Virus record (IMG/VR): IMGVR_UViG_2711768063_000005
Coordinates: 1-37,296 of that record
DNA length: 37,296 nt
Direction: 5' to 3' (one strand)
Origin: a virus
Lineage: Duplodnaviria; Heunggongvirae; Uroviricota; Caudoviricetes
Position 1 is the first letter of the stretch; the number at the start of each line of letters is the position of its first letter. The notes beneath the pieces are model-generated. The model was not told the origin of the DNA, made no database searches, and saw nothing but the letters and a program-made list of their open reading frames with translations. Shown here one piece after another: positions 11,761-19,550 of the stretch. The translations under genes were made by a program, and so were the position numbers.

Positions 11761-12558
11761 ATGAATAATCTGATGGTCATTGATGGTATTGAAGTTCGTC
11801 GTGATGCTTATGGTCGTTACAGCCTGAACGATCTTCACAGGGCTGCCGGTTCTCTGGATAAGCATAAGCCTGCATTCTGGCTCCGCAATGAGCAAACTGA
11901 ACGTTTAATAAGCGAGTTGCAGATTTGCAACTCGGTCAATATAGAGCCAGTTAACGTTATTCGTGGCGGAAATAACCAGGGGACGTATGTCTGCAAAGAA
12001 CTGGTGTATGCCTATGCAATGTGGATAAGCCCGTCATTCCATCTTAAGGTGATCCGTACTTTCGACATGGTAACCAGCGCACCGGAAAAATTATCCGGAC
12101 AGGCTGCTGACAAGATGCAGGCTGGTGTGATTCTGCTGGACTTTATGCGCCGGGAATTAAATCTGTCTAACTCTTCAGTGCTTGGTGCCTGTCAGAAACT
12201 CCAGGAGGCTGTTGGCTTACCGAATCTGGCACCGCGCTATGCCATTGATGCTCCTGCTGACGCGCCTGATGGCTCAAGCCGCCCCACGCTGTCACTGAGT
12301 GCACTGCTGAAGCAGTATGGTATCCGCCTGACAGCTAATCAGGCATATCACCAGATGGTGAAGCTGGGGATCGTCGAGCAGCGCGAACGATACAGCCGTA
12401 CCGCGATTAACAACATCAAAAAATTCTGGTCGCTGACAGCGAAAGGCTGCATGTTCGGCAAGAATATCACCAGTCCCGCAAATCCGCGCGAGACGCAGCC
12501 GCATTTCTTCGAATCCCGATTCCCTGAGCTGTTAAAGCTGCTCGATACCGTTCATTGA
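11761..12558 (+). CDS. KilA-N domain protein (antirepressor-like)
   Basis: N-terminal IDGIEVRRDAYGRYSLNDLHRAAG...KPAFWLRNEQTERLISEL...GTYVCKELVYAYAMWISPSFHLKVIRTF is typical of KilA-N/Bro-N type DNA-binding domains. Confidence 0.65.
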   Translation: MNNLMVIDGIEVRRDAYGRYSLNDLHRAAGSLDKHKPAFWLRNEQTERLISELQICNSVNIEPVNVIRGGNNQGTYVCKELVYAYAMWISPSFHLKVIRTFDMVTSAPEKLSGQAADKMQAGVILLDFMRRELNLSNSSVLGACQKLQEAVGLPNLAPRYAIDAPADAPDGSSRPTLSLSALLKQYGIRLTANQAYHQMVKLGIVEQRERYSRTAINNIKKFWSLTAKGCMFGKNITSPANPRETQPHFFESRFPELLKLLDTVH

Positions 12559-12559
12559 G

Positions 12560-13555
12560 GTGACCGTGAGAGCACTACTGACCCCTGAAATTGCCCCGCG
12601 TATGGGGATCGTATTGTTCAGGCCAGGTTCAGAGTTGATGCCCCTGTTTATGCAGGGGCGTGTCCTGCTGGAGCCTGAGCCGGAACGTTATTCATCTTTC
12701 GCCAGCGGTGCAGTTCCGGCGGCATCACAACCGCTGGCGGATGATCCTGCCGTTCGGGCCGTGTTCCGCAATGAGGCAGTGATCCGTCGTGCTGGTGGCG
12801 TGGAATGTCTTGAAAGCTGGTTACTTCGTGAAAAAGGCTGCCAGTGGCCTCATTCCGACTGGCACAGCGAGAACATGACCACAATGCGACACGCTCCGGG
12901 CGCAATCCGTCTGTGCTGGCACTGCGATAACCAGCTGCGCGATCAGTTCACGGAACGGCTGGAATCAATGGCAACGGATAACTGTGCCCGCTGGGTGTTG
13001 TCTGTTGTGCGTCGGAATCTCGGTTTTGATGACAGTCACGTTGTGACAATGCCGGAACTGTGCTGGTGGCTGATTCGTAATGACCTGGCGGATGCCTTAC
13101 CGGAAAGTGCAGCCCGTAAGGCACTGAGATTACCGAAGCCTGTTGTGCCGTCTGTCACCCGGGAAAGTGACCTTGTGCCTTCGGTTCCTGCCACCAGCAT
13201 CATCCAGGATAAGGCGAAAAAGGTGCTGGCGCTGAAAGTGGATCCGGAGTCGCCGGAGTCTTTTATGTTACGCCCAAAACGTCGCCGCTGGGTTAATGAA
13301 AAGTACACGCGCTGGGTTAAGACACAGCCGTGTGCATGTTGTGGAAAGCCTGCTGATGATCCCCACCACCTGATAGGCCACGGTCAGGGGGGAATGGGTA
13401 CAAAAGCGCATGACCTCTTTGTGTTGCCTTTGTGCAGAAAGCATCACGACGAGCTGCATGCGGATACCGTGGCATTTGAAGAGAAGTATGGCTCCCAGTT
13501 GGAGCTGATATTTCGTTTTATTGATCGTGCGCTGGCAATTGGCGTGCTGGCCTGA
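12560..13555 (+). CDS. DUF968/YdfU-like phage protein with C-terminal HNH-like zinc-binding motif
   Basis: C-terminus CACCGKPADDPHHLIGHGQGGMGTKAHDLFVLPLCRKHHDELH; GTG start embedded in GAGGTG (alternative GTG at 12566). Confidence 0.55.
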   Translation: MTVRALLTPEIAPRMGIVLFRPGSELMPLFMQGRVLLEPEPERYSSFASGAVPAASQPLADDPAVRAVFRNEAVIRRAGGVECLESWLLREKGCQWPHSDWHSENMTTMRHAPGAIRLCWHCDNQLRDQFTERLESMATDNCARWVLSVVRRNLGFDDSHVVTMPELCWWLIRNDLADALPESAARKALRLPKPVVPSVTRESDLVPSVPATSIIQDKAKKVLALKVDPESPESFMLRPKRRRWVNEKYTRWVKTQPCACCGKPADDPHHLIGHGQGGMGTKAHDLFVLPLCRKHHDELHADTVAFEEKYGSQLELIFRFIDRALAIGVLA

Positions 13556-13569
13556 TTTGGTGGAGAAAG

Positions 13570-13920
13570 TTGATGCGTGATATGTATGAAGTATTGGACC
13601 GCTGGGGAGCATGGGCTGCAGCAGAAAATAGTGGTGTGGACTGGCAGCCGATAGCGGCTGGTTTCAAGGGACTTTTACCACACGGTAAAAAGTCACGTCT
13701 CCAGTGTGATGATGATGAAGGCATCATGATAGATAGTTGTGTGGCTAGGTTGCGTAAATATAAGCCGGAAGAGTATGAGCTGATAATTGCTCACTTTGTT
13801 ATCGGTATCTCATTACGCACTATTGCGAAGAAGAGAAAATGCTCTGATGGGACTATAAGAAAAAAGTTGCAAGCTGCATTGGGATTTATTGATGCAGTTA
13901 TATATATAATACATGGGTAA
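13570..13920 (+). CDS. Late-gene antiterminator, Q-like (small Q family)
   Basis: GGAGAAAG RBS; 116 aa; position immediately upstream of the late promoter/lysis region; family call from memory of small phage antiterminator Q proteins. Confidence 0.5.
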   Translation: MMRDMYEVLDRWGAWAAAENSGVDWQPIAAGFKGLLPHGKKSRLQCDDDEGIMIDSCVARLRKYKPEEYELIIAHFVIGISLRTIAKKRKCSDGTIRKKLQAALGFIDAVIYIIHG

Positions 13921-13927
13921 TTTATTA

Positions 13928-13946
13928 GACGGCCATATTGGCCGTC
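13928..13946. terminator. Bidirectional hairpin between convergent Q and the cargo cassette
   Basis: Perfect inverted repeat GACGGCCA-tat-TGGCCGTC in an AT-rich context; overlaps the stop of the minus-strand gene. Confidence 0.45.
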
Positions 13947-15123
13947 AGCTAAATAAATATGTAATAGCATAAGGCGTAAGTAAAAAGTAGAATCTAAATG
14001 TAAGATATAAGCCACATAAAACTATAATTCCTAATGAGGCAAAAACAATTTTCTGAACAAGCAATCTTGTGGTTAAACTATCAAATGTATCCTTTATATC
14101 TTCGTAAATAGCCTTGAAGTTATATTCTGCTTGTTGTTTTTTATGATTTAACTCATCATTTATTGCTGTTAAAGTTTGCCATTGATTAAATAGAACAAAT
14201 AGAATCATAATAGTGAAGAACAATGCACCCAACACTACAGCTGTGTTTATTAATGCTTGACTATCCCAACCATTAGCCTGCTTCATTTGAGTCGCAACGA
14301 TAATTGTTGCGACGGGGATACCTAATATCTGATTTTGTATGTCACTGAATACTTTATGTATTTTCCCCATCTCTTCTATTTTGGCTACTCGTAACTGATC
14401 CAGTATTTTCTCGTAAGAAAAACCAGAAACGAATACTTTGTATCCTTTTTGATAACTTTCATAAAGTTGTCCTAAATCCCTTAACATGAAGGAAAAAGAG
14501 GTTTCTTTAGTTTTAGATTCACATGATGATTTTATACTACTTGCTAAAATAGTAAGTTTTTGATCTTTATGCGTATCTTCTGCAAAGTTTGCGATCAAAT
14601 TATGAATCAGATCTCCATTAACATTCATAAGATCATCGCTAGAATAATTTACTGGAATTTTTAGTACGTTGGATTCGACGAATACCAATTCAAAATTTGT
14701 TTCATCTAAATAAGCAGAACAATCTTTGAATAAAGTAATTAAGCTCAAAACATCTCTGTACTTGGATATAATAGCAGGCGACTTTTTATCCCTGTTGTGA
14801 TAATTAAGTTCGATTATAAAGAAGTTACTGGCTTCCTTTATCCTATTTTTAGGATTTTTTAAATACTCATTAAAAGAGAAATGTAGCTGCCCCAATCGTA
14901 ATTTGGGGGGGGTTATATGTAAGGTTATAGTTTGGCCTAACTCAATGTTGCCAGATTCAAGGGTGATGCCAAAATCATGGGGATTCTCTGTGATATCGTT
15001 GATGATGTCACAGAGCTCCTCGTTTGAAAGAATGAGTGATGCTTCAGATAGGGTACCTGCAAATGTAGCGGCCTTGTAAATAGTCACTAAGTCTTTGAAG
15101 GTTCTCTGATTGTTACTGCTCAT
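13945..15123 (-). CDS. Membrane-anchored protein of unknown function (about 290-aa soluble N-terminal region, two C-terminal TM helices); partner of the NA37-like gene
   Basis: ATG at 15123 with AGGTG 6 nt upstream, inside the last codons of the upstream gene (11-nt overlap, coupling). Hydrophobic segments ALINTAVVLGALFFTIMILFVLF and IVFASLGIIVLCGLYLTFRFYFLL near the C-terminus. AT-rich. No family recognised. Confidence 0.7.
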   Translation of the reverse strand: MSSNNQRTFKDLVTIYKAATFAGTLSEASLILSNEELCDIINDITENPHDFGITLESGNIELGQTITLHITPPKLRLGQLHFSFNEYLKNPKNRIKEASNFFIIELNYHNRDKKSPAIISKYRDVLSLITLFKDCSAYLDETNFELVFVESNVLKIPVNYSSDDLMNVNGDLIHNLIANFAEDTHKDQKLTILASSIKSSCESKTKETSFSFMLRDLGQLYESYQKGYKVFVSGFSYEKILDQLRVAKIEEMGKIHKVFSDIQNQILGIPVATIIVATQMKQANGWDSQALINTAVVLGALFFTIMILFVLFNQWQTLTAINDELNHKKQQAEYNFKAIYEDIKDTFDSLTTRLLVQKIVFASLGIIVLCGLYLTFRFYFLLTPYAITYLFS

Positions 15124-16147
15124 CCTCTTCACCTAATTCTGATAAAATCTCTGATCTTAGCGTATCCGGAATCTCGGTAAGTATCAATTTATCGTTTTCT
15201 GAATCATAAAGAACGCTGCCATCATGCAAGGCCGCACGCTCGAATTTCAGAGACCAATGTTTGGACTTTCCTTTGAAACTAACAAGCCCACGTATAACGT
15301 TGCCATCAGGCACGAACCCATCAGAGAACTCCAGATCGTCATTGGTTAACTTTTCAACTAACAACTCAGGAGCAGTTGGCCATATCTCGTTTGCAAAAAT
15401 TTGAGTGTCGAAAGTTTCACCAGAACGATTTAAATTTTTTAATTTTTCATGAGCCTTATTTAGGAACTCTTCACGTGCCTCTGGTTCAAAACCTCTTTCA
15501 GTAGCAAATTCTAAAAGTGCATTCCGTAATTTTGTTGTTTCTTGTTTGGCAATTAGAATATCGTTGCAACCTAAAAACTTTTTGAAATAACCTGCTACTG
15601 AATTTTGCCCCTTTAGAAAGCTAATATATCTCTCTTTGCCATTCTGGCGCCCAGTTAAGTCAATTCGTCCCGCTACTCGAAGTTTAGCAATGTCTAGATA
15701 TTCACTTTCTTGAATTTCAAAATCGTGGACTGAAGAGCCAACTGCTGATGTTAGGATTGCAACCATCAAATAATGATTTCCATTTACCTCATTATGGGCA
15801 ATTATTACATAACCACCAGTAGACATTGATTCATCATCGGCTCTGGCTTTTAAATGATTGATCATTCGGATACTAGTATCATAAAAACTATGTGTTTTAT
15901 TTACGAAATAATCATCAACGATATTACCCATAGGGTAACTATCGCGGTCATCTTCAAATTTCCCATATCCTTTACCTGCTCTCCCAGAGTACCTTTCAGT
16001 AAGTGCGTTAGAGAGGTCTTTTGATGCTTGCTGAACAGGTTTTTCTGAAGGACAAGGAATAATGGTGGCTAACCCCTGTTGTTCCTTGTTCATAATGTGA
16101 ACAATAAACTTATGAGTGATATTAGTGGGGGTCGCTGATGCAGTCAT
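15113..16147 (-). CDS. NdpA/YejK-like nucleoid-associated protein homologue (NA37 family), phage-encoded
   Basis: Full-length collinearity with E. coli YejK as I recall it: [22 protein letters not shown] vs [38 protein letters not shown] vs [25 protein letters not shown]...FLG vs TRYLTFLKG...FLG. AAGGA RBS 8 nt upstream of the ATG; AT-rich. Confidence 0.8.
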   Translation of the reverse strand: [344 protein letters not shown]

Positions 16148-16263
16148 AACAACATCCTTTTAATGGTTTTGAACAATTGGTGTTGATAATACTTCAAAAA
16201 ATACTAATGCGTACGCAAAAAATACAGTACTCTGTTAAGAGTGGTTACTTCGCCACACAGCTT
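16148..16263. promoter_or_regulatory. AT-rich divergent promoter region: candidate late promoter (PR'/qut-like, + strand) and promoter of the antisense cargo operon (- strand)
   Basis: Intergenic AT-rich stretch with TTGATA/TTGAAC -35-like hexamers, followed on the + strand by a short leader ending in a terminator; assignment by position. Confidence 0.35.
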
Positions 16264-16290
16264 AAACCCGCCGTCGAGCGGGTTTTGTCG
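16264..16290 (+). terminator. Rho-independent terminator (tR'-like) upstream of the lysis cassette
   Basis: AAACCCGC-cgtcga-GCGGGTTTTGTCGTTT: GC stem followed by a T-run. Confidence 0.55.
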
Positions 16291-16437
16291 TTTCTGGGCT
16301 TTGGTATTCGTTGGGCTTGGTCTATCTAGCTCTTATCCATTGGCTCGGCTTCTTTTACGTTTCCGCTTCTGATTTGCGGTTCGTGGTACTCCCTCAATTT
16401 GCACCTCTTGTATCGGCGAGGTGAGAGATAACTACAA

Positions 16438-16764
16438 ATGCCTCATAACCCAAATACTTGGCTGGAGTTGGTCCAGAGCTGGTGGCGTGGAGACACACCG
16501 CTGGGCGCAGTGATTATGTCGATTGTTATGGCTGGTTTGCGCATTGCCTATTTTGGCGGTGGTGGTGGCTGGAAGCGAAAAACACTCGAAATTCTACTCT
16601 GTGGCGCTCTGACGCTGACTTTTGCATCCGCTCTTGAGTATGTCGGATGGCCTAAATCGCTTTCTGTTGCCATTGGTGGTGGGGTGGGGCTGATCGGTGT
16701 CGATGCTATTCGTGGGGCTGCAATGAGAGTAATCGGTAATAAGTTTGGTGGCTCTAAGGAGTAA
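16438..16764 (+). CDS. S: Holin (lambda S-like class I)
   Basis: GAGGTGA RBS; 108 aa with hydrophobic segments and charged C-terminus; directly upstream of the endolysin; pattern resembles lambda S. Confidence 0.8.
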   Translation: MPHNPNTWLELVQSWWRGDTPLGAVIMSIVMAGLRIAYFGGGGGWKRKTLEILLCGALTLTFASALEYVGWPKSLSVAIGGGVGLIGVDAIRGAAMRVIGNKFGGSKE

Positions 16765-16767
16765 TTT

Positions 16768-17244
16768 ATGCAGGTACTAAATTCCCAGCGTAAAGCTTTC
16801 CTCGATATGGTGGCATGGTCAGAAGGAACGGATAACGGGCGACAACCGACACGTAACCACGGTTATGATGTTATTGTTGGTGGTGAACTGTTCACTGATT
16901 ACTCCGATCACCCTCGCAAACTTGTCACGCTAAACCCAAAACTCAAATCAACAGCCGCCGGACGTTACCAGCTTCTTTCCCGTTGGTGGGATGCCTACCG
17001 TAAGCAGCTTGGCCTGAAAGACTTCTCTCCAAAAAGCCAGGACGCTGTGGCATTGCAGCAGATTAAGGAGCGTGGCGCTTTACCGATGATTGATCGCGGT
17101 GATATTCGTCAGGCTATCGACCGTTGCAGCAATATCTGGGCTTCACTGCCGGGCGCTGGTTATGGCCAGTTCGAGCATAAGGCTGACAGCCTGATTGCAA
17201 AATTCAAAGAGGCTGGCGGAACGGTCAGAGAGATTGAGGTATGA
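16768..17244 (+). CDS. R: Endolysin, lambda R-type lytic transglycosylase
   Basis: 158 aa; [58 protein letters not shown]... matches lambda R nearly residue for residue as I recall it. Confidence 0.95.
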
Positions 17245-17678
17245 GCAGAGTCACCGCGATTATCTCCGCTCTGATTATCTGCATCATCGTCTGCCTGTCA
17301 TGGGCTGTTAATCATTACCGTGATAACGCCATCGCCTACAAAGAGCAGCGCGATAAAGCCACATCCATCATCGCTGACATGCAGAAGCGTCAACGTGATG
17401 TAGCAGAACTCGACGCCAGATATACAAAGGAGCTTGCTGATGCTAACGCGACTATCGAAAGTCTCCGTGCTGATGTTTCTGCTGGGCGTAAGCGCCTGCA
17501 AGTCGCCGCCACCTGTGCAAAGTCAACGACCGGAGCCAGCAGCATGGGCGATGGAGAAAGCCCAGGACTTACAGCAGATGCTGAACTCAATTATTACCGT
17601 CTCCGAAGTGGAATCGACAGGATAACCGCGCAGGTTAACTACCTGCAGGAATACATCAGGACGCAATGCCTTCGATGA
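17241..17678 (+). CDS. Rz: i-spanin Rz
   Basis: N-terminal signal-anchor [30 protein letters not shown] matches lambda Rz; coiled-coil periplasmic domain. Confidence 0.85.
17434..17625 (+). CDS. Rz1: o-spanin Rz1 lipoprotein, embedded in the +1 frame of Rz
   Basis: Lipobox LLGVSAC followed by a proline-rich segment ([16 protein letters not shown]), entirely within Rz, as in lambda. Confidence 0.8.
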
Positions 17679-17867
17679 TAGCGATAATTTTACTCATCAT
17701 CCTTCACATCTGGCTCTGTAGACAGGGTGATGCTTACTTCTGGAGCGAATCCAGATTAAACATCTCATTGCTGATGCTTGATATTGAGCATCTGGCGCGC
17801 GGTAAGGGCTGTGTTGAGATAAGTGCCAGTTCATTACAAAGCTATATCTAATGGAACCTGAAATAAT

Positions 17868-17885
17868 TTGTCATTGTCATGACAA
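17868..17885. promoter_or_regulatory. TTGTCAT direct repeat plus 12-bp perfect palindrome TTGTCATGACAA overlapping a -35-like hexamer upstream of the first moron gene
   Basis: TTGTCA-N16-TAATGA promoter-like arrangement; palindrome could be an operator. Confidence 0.3.
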
Positions 17886-17928
17886 GAAAATTCATTAATG
17901 ATGAGCTCTCATTATACGGGAGGTAGAT

Positions 17929-18177
17929 ATGGCATTTCGTTATTTTGAACTTACCGAAAATATTCCTTTTGAGGATGCAAGAGAGCTTCACGTACAGTTC
18001 AAACACCACTTAGAATATGTTGTAAAGGCGTTATTTATGCCAGGAACACATGAAAAGCATTTAATTGTTGAAGGCCGGGATGACGAATCGATAACACAGA
18101 TATTTGGTGGGCATGATGAAAAGTTTATGCATCTTTATCATATCGATGAATATGAAAAATGTGAAGACTTAATCTAA
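17929..18177 (+). CDS. Hypothetical small His-rich protein (82 aa), moron
   Basis: GGGAGG RBS at 6-nt spacing; AT-rich; no recognised family. Confidence 0.5.
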   Translation: MAFRYFELTENIPFEDARELHVQFKHHLEYVVKALFMPGTHEKHLIVEGRDDESITQIFGGHDEKFMHLYHIDEYEKCEDLI

Positions 18178-18292
18178 CCTCCTACGACTGTTTTTATTGC
18201 CATCATAAAAGCCATTCCTTGCAGAGTGGCTTTGATAATGGATATCCCAACAAGCGGATAAGACAATAAATATACCCACCAAGGGATAAACA

Positions 18293-18808
18293 ATGTCTAA
18301 AATCACGGTTACACCTGCATAGCAGATCCGCTTAAACCTGCTGGCGAAACTGAACTATGACACCGCCGCTGCAGCAGACGCGATTAAGTTTGTTGGTGAC
18401 GATCCGTTGAAGTATCAAATCTTTGTGAACCAGTTAAGCTGGGTAACATCTGAAAGCGGGCTGGTAGCCAGAACGACGAAAGCTATCAAAGAGTCGGAAG
18501 ACACACTACTGTGGTTTGAAGCTGAATCTGGTTCATACGTGAATGAATGTGGTAATTTAATTCTCCGCAAAAAAAAGGGGATAAAAATGCCAAAGAATGT
18601 CATAGCTATTTTACCGGGTGACGCGTTTGATCATGTTGTTGTCCAGGACGACCTGGAGATTGTTACCTTCAGGGGTGACAAGGGCGGCGTGCTTACTATG
18701 CCTATCGAGGAGTACGAACTAGACGGGATAAGTTATAACGTCGCACGTTGTGACGGTATGGTCACTGACGAAAAAGTTGAGAAGGCTATCAGACACTTCA
18801 CCAAGTAA
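18293..18808 (+). pseudogene. 172-codon reading frame interrupted by a single in-frame amber (TAG) at codon 10; candidate pseudogene or suppression/reinitiation-dependent gene
   Basis: ATG at 18293 with AAGGGA RBS; TAG at 18320-18322; frame continues uninterrupted to 18808 (the track ORF begins at TTG 18407 in the same frame); strong terminator follows. Confidence 0.4.
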
Positions 18809-18825
18809 TAATCAGCTTCCGAACC

Positions 18826-18850
18826 AAGCCTCGCAATAGCGAGGCTTTTT
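18826..18850 (+). terminator. Rho-independent terminator
   Basis: AAGCCTCGC-aata-GCGAGGCTTTTT. Confidence 0.65.
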
Positions 18851-18862
18851 AACGACAGAGGT

Positions 18863-19057
18863 ATGACAGTGGTTCTTACAGCTAAGCAGTTTGAAGACCT
18901 TGCATCCTTCGCGAAGGAAGATAGCCAGCCTCAATACACCATCGCAACCGGAATAATCCCAGAATTCGAAGATGATTGTGAGTTTATCCCCGTTTATGCC
19001 GGGCTCATCGCTTATTTAGAGTTACTGAATCACGGTGTATTGCAACTCGACCACTAG
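18863..19057 (+). CDS. Hypothetical small acidic protein (64 aa)
   Basis: ORF between two terminators; RBS spacing poor (GAGG immediately before the ATG), so uncertain. Confidence 0.35.
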   Translation: MTVVLTAKQFEDLASFAKEDSQPQYTIATGIIPEFEDDCEFIPVYAGLIAYLELLNHGVLQLDH

Positions 19058-19131
19058 CGACATTACGCCAAGTATTCATCAAGTGCCTAGTTTAATGTTA
19101 AATTATTCCCTCATTCCTAAAAGGGAATGTT

Positions 19132-19533
19132 ATGAAAATAGATCACGAGTATTTGAAAGGTCTTTTGGAAGCTTTCGAGGCGTCTGAAGAGCCGCATACT
19201 GATATAAAGCAGCTGCAGCTGGCTGGGTATGACTACAGCACCGATGAATTTTTATTCCATATGCGTTTATTGGCTGATCGTCAACTAATTGCTAGAACAG
19301 ACGGCAAGTATGGGTTTGGTTTCTCTGAGGCTGCTGAGGGAGGATCATGGTTCGTTATACCGTTACGATTAACTTCAAGCGGTCATGACTTCCTTGAAGC
19401 TCTCAGGAATAAAGAGGTTTGGAATTCTCTCAAGACCGGCTTTAAAGATGCAAGCATTGGAACATTAGTTGACGTTTCAAGGCGTTTGCTGGATGGTTAT
19501 ATTCAGAAAAAAATTGACGACTTAATTGGCTAA
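19132..19533 (+). CDS. Hypothetical protein (133 aa), moron; possibly DUF2513-like
   Basis: AAGGGAA RBS; small hairpin overlapping the RBS (TTCCCT...AGGGAA); own terminator downstream. Confidence 0.55.
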   Translation: MKIDHEYLKGLLEAFEASEEPHTDIKQLQLAGYDYSTDEFLFHMRLLADRQLIARTDGKYGFGFSEAAEGGSWFVIPLRLTSSGHDFLEALRNKEVWNSLKTGFKDASIGTLVDVSRRLLDGYIQKKIDDLIG

Positions 19534-19550
19534 TATTTTATATAACCATC

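Follow-up and report, generated by a model that had tools for sequence, protein, structure and literature searches.

In phage lambda the Q antiterminator gene is immediately followed by PR'/qut and tR'. The locus described here departs from that order. It lies in a 37,296-nt stretch of Caudoviricetes DNA (IMG/VR record IMGVR_UViG_2711768063_000005, positions 1 to 37,296), referred to below at its full length as the window, in which a Q gene of the phage 21 family is followed by a 2.2-kb cassette of antisense genes. Only beyond the cassette, 2.3 kb past the Q stop codon rather than directly downstream of Q as for PR', begins a segment of ~95 bp (16196-16286, + strand) that was delimited by sequence comparison. 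At a probability of roughly 0.75, we take this segment to be the late-gene control module of a Q21-family antiterminator, with a PR'-like promoter, a Q-binding element, a pause region and a terminator, split from Q by an exchanged defence cassette at a recombination hotspot.

Compared with the lambda Q-PR'-qut-tR' region (6S RNA), the module would share a constitutive promoter, a short leader that is terminated in lysogens, and the loading of Q, while polymerase is in a sigma-dependent pause, at a site embedded in the promoter. It differs in that lambda Q belongs to an unrelated family (PF03589), the lambda leader is 194 nt long, and lambda has no insert between Q and PR'. With the Q21/PR'21/tR'21 system of phage 21, the window shares the Q family (PF06530), a proposed Q-binding element between −35 and −10, and a candidate promoter-proximal pause followed by a terminator; an adjacent A/T-rich minor-groove contact is also plausible for the window module. 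On the other hand, Q21 has 162 aa and is only distantly similar to the 115-aa window Q, the promoter of phage 21 directly follows the Q gene, and the phage 21 site is a direct repeat, with two copies of TGAGCA 8 bp apart and centred near −21 and −13 (PMC6606751), whereas the window has a single palindrome of 8-9 bp at about −31 to −24.

The Stx phages offer a third comparison. Their late promoter is constitutive and terminated in lysogens, and its leader is processed into the small RNA StxS (PMC7547250). Like the window, they carry accessory cargo in the Q-to-lysis interval, and Stx-type phages, 1720a-02 among them, carry the same module directly after Q. However, stx lies downstream of PR'/tR', in sense orientation and dependent on Q, whereas the window cargo lies upstream, antisense and outside antitermination. 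One module would then have two cargo slots with opposite regulatory consequences, the side of the 95-bp element on which a gene lands deciding whether it is expressed in the lysogen or at lysis only.

The DLP12 prophage of E. coli K-12 has a Q of the same family and the same order of elements, namely quuD, nmpC (an antisense porin gene interrupted by IS5), the module and essD/rrrD/rzpD. Its module reads TTTACG-16-TATGCT, then GTTAAGAGTGGTTACTTCGTCACACAGCTTAAACCCGCCGTCGAGCGGGTTTTT, and lies ~120 nt before essD. A statement in the review PMC7918800 that the DLP12 lysis operon answers to a Q-type antiterminator speaks for the proposal. Unlike the window, DLP12 has its own Q class (helix CSDGYIGK, palindrome ACGTACGT) and a porin rather than a defence gene as cargo, and nmpC starts ~400 bp from the module, so that the two promoters would not overlap. 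Taken together, these likenesses and differences support a view of the window locus as a variation on known Q-cassette logic, in the form of a displaced, palindromic, subtype-specific Q module with exchangeable antisense defence cargo.

Position of the module relative to Q

A sequence-only reading of the window had proposed the layout Q, 2.2-kb antisense cassette, AT-rich region, leader with terminator, and holin, and each of these elements was found where that reading had placed it. The Q gene (13573-13920, + strand) encodes 115 aa from an ATG; the open reading frame (ORF) tool gave 13570-13920 with a TTG start at 13570, but homology makes the ATG at 13573 (MRDMYEVL...) the likelier start. 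The protein matches PF06530 (Q21 family) in a Pfam profile search (E=1.2e-44) and phrog_79 ('anti-termination protein Q-like'), and gives weak matches to the solved Q21 structures 6P18/6JNX (E=0.003) and to ECF-sigma region 4. Its recognition-helix region reads KRKCSDGTIRKKLQA. The cassette after Q consists of two overlapping minus-strand ORFs (13945-15132 and 15113-16147; GC 0.30-0.42 vs ~0.50 window-wide) and is followed by an intergenic region of 86 bp and 29% GC (16148-16233), then by the leader, whose terminator lies ~150 nt before the holin gene.

Between the Q stop and the cargo stop codon are 24 bp, occupied in the window by a GC-rich hairpin, GACGGCCA-UAU-UGGCCGUC, that can form on either strand between the convergent Q and cargo genes (13928-13946). 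It folds at −15.2 kcal/mol (z=−3.6) on the + strand and at −16.3 kcal/mol (z=−4.3) on the minus strand, and has a good U-tract on neither. The hairpin is probably a bidirectional terminator; alternatively, it may serve as a processing site.

Relatives of the locus, ~200 in all, were compared over the Q-to-lysis interval, a comparison that the sequence-only reading had itself proposed, and they back the displaced-module reading. In BLAST searches of phage genomes, the Q gene and a short segment (~16193-16286) recur jointly with widely differing amounts of DNA between them. Thus, in the Stx-type phages 1720a-02 and PhiR49_2, the sequence GTTAAGAGTGGTTACTTCGCCACACAGCTTAAACCCGCC-GCGAGCGGGTTTTTTT, which is that of window positions 16234-16286, comes 38 bp after the Q stop, and Shigella phage SfII has another two-gene antisense cassette at the same place, then the same leader sequence. 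A scan of IMG/VR with the exact 28-nt leader core, which is unique in the window where chance predicts 0 copies, retrieved at least 120 contigs. Among the matches listed, the distance from Q stop to core is 27-44 bp in 27 loci, the rest forming discrete classes between 525 and 3780 bp; these same matches comprise at least 66 unique Q-to-module intervals with ~24 cargo types (GC 0.30-0.42), the cargo being antisense to Q in all but two unique intervals. Overall, the module stands on the far side of variable cargo in >100 loci. The suggestion of a late promoter and terminator on the far side of the insert is strongly supported by this comparison: the conserved module follows the Q stop by 27-44 bp when there is no insert and otherwise lies across the cargo, at 0.1-3.8 kb.

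A second search, led by protein and requiring no exact core, used an alignment of six Q types to retrieve 80 loci from one-genome-per-species contigs. Nearly all had a recognisable module ~0-2.9 kb downstream of Q. The genera covered include Escherichia/Shigella, Klebsiella, Enterobacter, Citrobacter, Kosakonia, Serratia, Yersinia, Erwinia, Pantoea, Xenorhabdus, Providencia and others. Judged from these genomes, the displaced layout is a recurrent arrangement in many enterobacterial prophages and not a one-off. Contigs labelled Erysipelotrichaceae, Vagococcus and Bacillus also bear this enterobacterial prophage region (Q identity 47-91%); they are probably binning or assembly contaminants.

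The edges of the module coincide with mosaic junctions on both sides. Its right end is the T-run of the terminator, downstream of which it joins either an SfII-type holin leader or an Stx-type region with methylase, tRNA and toxin genes; these alternative joins indicate that a second cargo slot, sense-strand and Q-dependent, begins directly after the terminator. At the left end of the exchanged segment, the final 10-15 codons of Q (13880-13920) vary among relatives that otherwise share the Q gene. The left junction of cargo exchange seems to fall within the Q coding sequence, whose C-terminus would then tolerate replacement. A 13-nt direct repeat (13890-13902 and 16136-16148, 12/13 identical) brackets the cassette almost exactly, but was rejected as a meaningful boundary since ~2 such pairs are estimated in 2.4 kb and its occurrence is probably due to chance.

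Proposed promoter, candidate Q-binding palindrome and predicted leader

Conservation within the module was read from an alignment of 34 sequences across genera. The element opens with an A6 tract (16196-16201, + strand; about −44 to −39 of the proposed late promoter), an A-run kept across cargo types and genera, whose counterpart in insert-free phages coincides in part with the final Lys codons and stop of Q; its position would be that of a proximal UP-element subsite. There follows a weak −35-like hexamer, CTAATG (16204-16209, + strand), 18 bp upstream of the −10. The family consensus here is c/tTAACG, most relatives having TTAACG or CTAACG with T16205 invariant, and DLP12-type loci have TTTACG or TTTACA with a 16-bp spacer. 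The proposed −10, TACTCT (16228-16233, + strand), is conserved as TAnnnT, in which the first T is nearly invariant, the A and final T are invariant and the inner bases are free, the pattern of conservation that is classically seen at a sigma-70 −10 element. A consensus promoter scan of 13400-16900 found no site of ≥9/12 on either strand within 16148-16290, so that the promoter call rests on comparative conservation. The earlier description of this region as promoter-like finds support in the comparison across genera, not in consensus matching alone.

Immediately downstream lies the block GTTAAGAGTGGT (16234-16245, + strand; TGnTAAGAGTGGT with the preceding T), where the cross-genus alignment is at its most conserved; GnTAAGAGTGGT is invariant or nearly so at these positions. 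From the position of the −10, transcription is predicted to start at A16240, give or take 3. The invariant TGnTAAGAGTGG block is at the right place for a pause element in the initially transcribed region, and AAGAGT (16237-16242), which has the two key bases and resembles AACGAT of lambda, is a candidate sigma-dependent pause element.

The candidate Q-binding element is an 8-bp palindrome, GCGTACGC, with an adjoining A6 tract (16209-16222, + strand; about −31 to −18). Its core columns 16210, 16211, 16214 and 16215 are invariant in the alignment, as is A16217 after the palindrome, and for the window's Q type the palindrome is invariant across at least 15 genera. Palindrome plus A-tract occurs once in the window, but a pattern that short appeared in 29 of 100 shuffles. 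Five classes of recognition helix pair one to one with five palindromes, with zero exceptions among ~70 distinct helix/cargo combinations: CSDGT(I/V)RK with GCGTACGC, K(D/S)EK.IRIE with GCGG(T/A)CCGC (GCGGWCCGC), CSDGYIGK with ACGTACGT, CSDTCIGK with ACGATCGT, and ISHTQILK with GGAATTCC. All five palindromes are 8-9 bp long and followed by an A/T tract, and their sequence depends on the upstream Q, not on the intervening cargo. The spacer to the right of the palindrome (e.g., CAAAAATTCTTGTAATCT) is common to different Q classes, and the cargo on the left is unrelated; the few Q-tracking bases thus have neighbours on either side that do not follow Q type, and this speaks against simple linkage.

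These data make the palindrome a candidate Q-binding element specific for its cognate Q. Its position agrees with that of the Q-binding elements of lambda and phage 21, which lie between −35 and −10 (PMC6606751), and the A/T tract next to it is consistent with the contact that the Q21 helix-turn[loop]-helix makes, through its loop, with the minor groove (bioRxiv 651190). The helix-to-palindrome pairs amount to testable predictions of DNA specificity for five Q subtypes.

The predicted leader RNA is 47 nt long (16240-16286, + strand) and would consist of a 5' hairpin (16241-16256), a single-stranded stretch and an intrinsic terminator, AAACCCGC-CGTCGA-GCGGGTTT then TGTCGTTTCT (stem 16264-16285, T-run 16283-16286; 8 pairs, 5 of them G-C). 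The sequence at 16240-16290 folds at −18.8 kcal/mol (z=−2.8). RNAalifold found no consensus structure in 25 leaders, the length-variable hairpins having been misaligned by MAFFT, and a hairpin search in each sequence with a shuffle control was then used. In 31 of 34 diverse homologues this gave a hairpin and T-rich tail, the end of which lies within ~43-62 nt from where transcription is predicted to start; 26 different hairpin sequences were represented, and shuffled leaders gave terminator-like hairpins in 39 of 680 cases. In Klebsiella phage Kp4865-4, whose version of the cargo is 76% identical, promoter and early leader are retained, but the hairpin is unrelated in sequence. Form kept while sequence turns over is as expected of an intrinsic terminator. 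A terminator so kept, the conserved TAnnnT and a site that co-varies with Q type are the hallmarks of a Q-utilisation site. A search of the whole window against Rfam matched no family, in the leader or elsewhere. The 5' hairpin has the form GUGGU...GCCAC; among relatives, 11 rows of the alignment carry a T-to-C change at 16246, and ten of these have C-to-A at 16253 while the eleventh has T there, which could reflect a shifted stem or a constraint at the DNA level.

The mechanism that we propose from these elements would run as follows. RNA polymerase would start near 16240 from a weak sigma-70 promoter (A-tract, CTAATG, 18-bp spacer, TACTCT), whose positions are given by conservation and whose activity is presumed. 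Without Q, it would stop at 16264-16286, a terminator recognised by structure and conservation, and release an RNA of ~47 nt. Q, encoded 2.3 kb away on the early rightward transcript, would diffuse to the palindrome and A-tract at 16209-16222 and load onto polymerase held in the TGnTAAGAGTGG region, with read-through into the holin, endolysin and spanin genes as the outcome; the site is proposed from the co-variation of Q type and palindrome, and loading and read-through follow the phage 21/lambda paradigm. The cassette would be transcribed leftwards from the same 86-bp gap, outside Q antitermination, and would be expressible in the lysogen. Because its target would be DNA and its action in trans, Q would lose nothing by being encoded at a distance, and the gap can therefore serve as a cargo slot. 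On this scheme, a terminated RNA of ~47 nt should be detectable in E. coli K-12, and the conserved leader and palindrome could be used in annotation to mark late promoters and to bound defence-gene hotspots in prophages.

Several observations weigh against the proposal. The late promoter matches consensus at 2/6 positions of the −35 and 3/6 of the −10 in the window, and the scan missed it. Distant relatives keep just TGnTA....T, and no pause register gives a canonical nAnnnT in all relatives; moreover, with a start at 16240 the RNA would be just ~8-13 nt long at the pause, against longer transcripts in lambda and phage 21. In every Q class the site is a single compact palindrome, in place of the two direct-repeat subsites of a Q21-type site, and the linkage of Q type to palindrome could partly reflect co-inheritance rather than function. 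For the start sites and 3' ends of the K-12 copy, the Term-seq supplements of PMC7815308 gave no match to essD or to the coordinates. Finally, PMC7918800 names RpoE and Hha beside the Q-type antiterminator as regulators of the DLP12 lysis operon, and when the primer published for its '−121 to +650' promoter fragment was mapped, the '+1' fell ~350 bp upstream of the module, in the nmpC-essD intergenic region. Since the source cited for it is an RpoE study, this '+1' would be an RpoE-dependent start and its promoter distinct from the module, so that other promoters can feed the lysis genes. Transcripts from that '+1' must pass the module terminator to reach essD.

RpoE also enters into the first of three alternatives, in which the module is mainly a lysis promoter that is either activated by Q, acting through its sigma region 4-like character as a −35 activator, or independent of Q and governed by host factors such as RpoE, which PMC7918800 cites as a regulator of the lysis operon in DLP12. 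The weak ECF-sigma region 4 matches of Q and the poor −35 would suit an activator, and reading TGnTAAGAG as an extended −10 would move the palindrome to about −39 to −32, an activator position. TGnTAAGAG is, however, the less likely −10 of the real promoter, as TAAGAG is without the essential final T and the upstream TAnnnT has the canonical conservation pattern. Furthermore, the solved members of the family are antiterminators, and a terminator is kept right after the promoter in almost every relative despite its sequence turnover, which is only sensible if read-through is regulated. We consider a promoter of this kind quite improbable as the main function of the module.

An equally low probability attaches to the idea that the leader is kept mainly as a trans-acting small RNA of lysogens, similar to StxS, or as a homology arm for cargo exchange, with Q control secondary. 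The predicted RNA does have the typical architecture of an Hfq-binding small RNA (5' hairpin, single-stranded stretch, U-tailed terminator), StxS is a precedent (PMC7547250), and the coincidence of module edges with mosaic junctions on both sides is what a homology arm would show. Conservation is, however, strongest in the promoter and the first ~12 transcribed bases, the single-stranded middle varies between genera, and there is no Rfam match. Such roles are compatible with a late-control module rather than alternative to it.

It is very unlikely that the true late promoter lies at the Q 3' end or right after it, with a late transcript running antisense through the cassette and 16234-16286 a mere downstream terminator or 5' untranslated region: that order is canonical in lambda, phage 21 and Stx phages, and the Q 3' end varies among relatives, but the hairpin-filled 24 bp between the Q and cargo stop codons leaves no room for a promoter, the consensus scan found no promoter-like + strand site at 13400-13945, the palindrome is single in the window, and palindrome and TAnnnT travel with the leader rather than with Q and directly follow Q in insert-free phages.

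Cargo genes and the leftward promoter

The first cargo gene (15113-16147, minus strand) encodes a 344-aa YejK/NdpA-like nucleoid-associated protein, a candidate sensor (Pag2A / DS1_1-like). It matches PF04245 (NA37) with E=8e-69 and, among NCBIfam profiles, YejK at 165 bits, which is below cutoff, and DS1_1_antiphage ('nucleoid-associated anti-phage protein') at E=2.8e-15 and 56 bits vs a cutoff of 330. The second gene (13945-15132, minus strand) shares 20 bp with the first, in the same orientation. Its product, 395 aa long and hydrophobic towards the C-terminus, is a candidate effector (Pag2B / DS1_2-like); it matches NCBIfam NF053869 (DS1_2_antiphage; E=1.6e-19, 70 bits vs a cutoff of 315) and phrog_5023, and has no Pfam match. 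PADLOC (2023) gave no match for the window cargo.

The architecture of type II PANGU is a YejK-like nucleoid-associated protein gene plus a membrane-protein gene (bioRxiv 10.64898/2026.04.06.716658), and the YejK nucleoid-associated domain is among the newly validated defence domains in the DefensePredictor paper (PMC13092281). The window cargo resembles PANGU type II, and DS-1 by NCBIfam family names, in being a two-gene operon of a YejK-like nucleoid-associated protein and then a membrane protein. It differs in scoring far below the curated DS1_1 and DS1_2 cutoffs, and is accordingly a distant relative. The cargo may be a divergent subtype of PANGU type II / DS-1, with defence as its predicted function. 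Of the features of a moron or lysogenic-conversion cassette such as nmpC in DLP12, this one shows foreign base composition, variable presence at a fixed site and a terminator-like hairpin, while scans of the window for a promoter of its own gave no canonical site.

Other occupants of the same slot include Kiwa (KwaB, E=2e-150, beside a 173-aa hydrophobic protein), PD-Lambda-1, PDC-S20, PDC-S33, PDC-M53 (in the SfII cassette), PDC-S42 and PDC-S60, as well as an ATPase plus methyltransferase pair and an HNH protein. With such occupants, the interval between Q and the module qualifies as a defence hotspot. If the module is what we propose, kilobases of DNA can separate a Q antiterminator from its target site, and the gap is heavily used for anti-phage defence genes. 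Several slot cassettes have no PADLOC match (e.g., those encoding 310/313-aa, 427-aa, 357-aa and 404+391-aa proteins), and these could be new defence candidates. We found no literature specific to this slot as a defence hotspot, to the QuuD site, to the palindromic sites or to their pairing with Q subtypes, though coverage was incomplete and this is absence of evidence only.

That the cargo is outside Q antitermination, as the sequence-only reading had it, follows from geometry, for the cargo lies upstream of the module and antisense to it. The same reading placed a divergent cargo promoter in the gap shared with the late promoter. Such a promoter is logically required, and is suggested in 12 other cargo types, but for the cargo of the window neither the consensus scan nor a position-weight scan of the minus strand found a canonical sigma-70 promoter. 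The 5' untranslated region and presumed promoter region of the cargo (16148-16195, minus strand) have an AAGGA Shine-Dalgarno sequence 8 nt upstream of the start codon. As a −10, TATTAT on the minus strand (+ coordinates 16186-16191) is the best candidate. It is kept with its flanks in the 76%-identical Klebsiella phage and lies 21 bp from the TTGCGT −35 used by other cargos.

In 12 cargo types of the window's Q class, the position-weight scan found TTGCGT-17/18-TAnnnT at one fixed position on the minus strand. TTGCGT is the reverse complement of the right half of the palindrome plus A-tract (ACGCAA, 16213-16218), and the −10 hexamers of the 12 types all differ; the window hexamer at the shared −10 position is GAAGTA. 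These findings are suggestive of a divergent promoter whose −35 overlaps the palindrome, and a promoter so fixed would put the two start sites ~58 bp apart with their −35 elements crossing. The argument is weakened by the fact that the 'TA' of the minus-strand −10 belongs to the conserved module even in insert-free phages, so that it rests mainly on an A at element position −44, present in 11 of 14 cargo types. Independence from Q antitermination may in any case not be independence from Q, as the candidate Q-binding palindrome appears to overlap the cargo promoter −35 in related loci.

An extension of this idea, which we regard as unlikely, would make the palindrome a toggle. In the lysogen, RNA polymerase would use the leftward promoter with its TTGCGT −35 and express an abortive-infection defence; in the lytic phase, Q would occupy the palindrome, load onto late-promoter complexes and block the defence promoter. 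Were this so, the phage would switch off its own suicide cargo while switching on lysis, and the built-in off-switch would be the reason why this gap, more than a place where insertions are tolerated, was chosen as a cargo slot.

Lysis genes and neighbouring regions

Three lysis genes follow the module on the + strand: a holin gene (16438-16764, ATG at 16438; PF05106), an endolysin gene (16768-17244) and an Rz-like spanin gene (17241-17678). Their counterparts in SfII and in E. coli genomes carry lysis-gene annotation. Over the Q-to-lysis stretch, a prophage of E. coli strain 2c3 is 100% identical to the window, and 15 further complete E. coli genomes match with at least 96% coverage and 97.3-99.8% identity.

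Upstream of Q lie genes for a KilA-N domain protein (11761-12558) and then a DUF968/HNH protein (12560-13555) that is YdfU-like; the pairing of YdfU with Q is seen again in many related phages. Past the spanin genes, at 17700-19550, is a second low-GC island (0.36-0.45), with several small + strand ORFs without Pfam match and a DUF2513 protein (19132-19533), which may be another accessory-gene slot.

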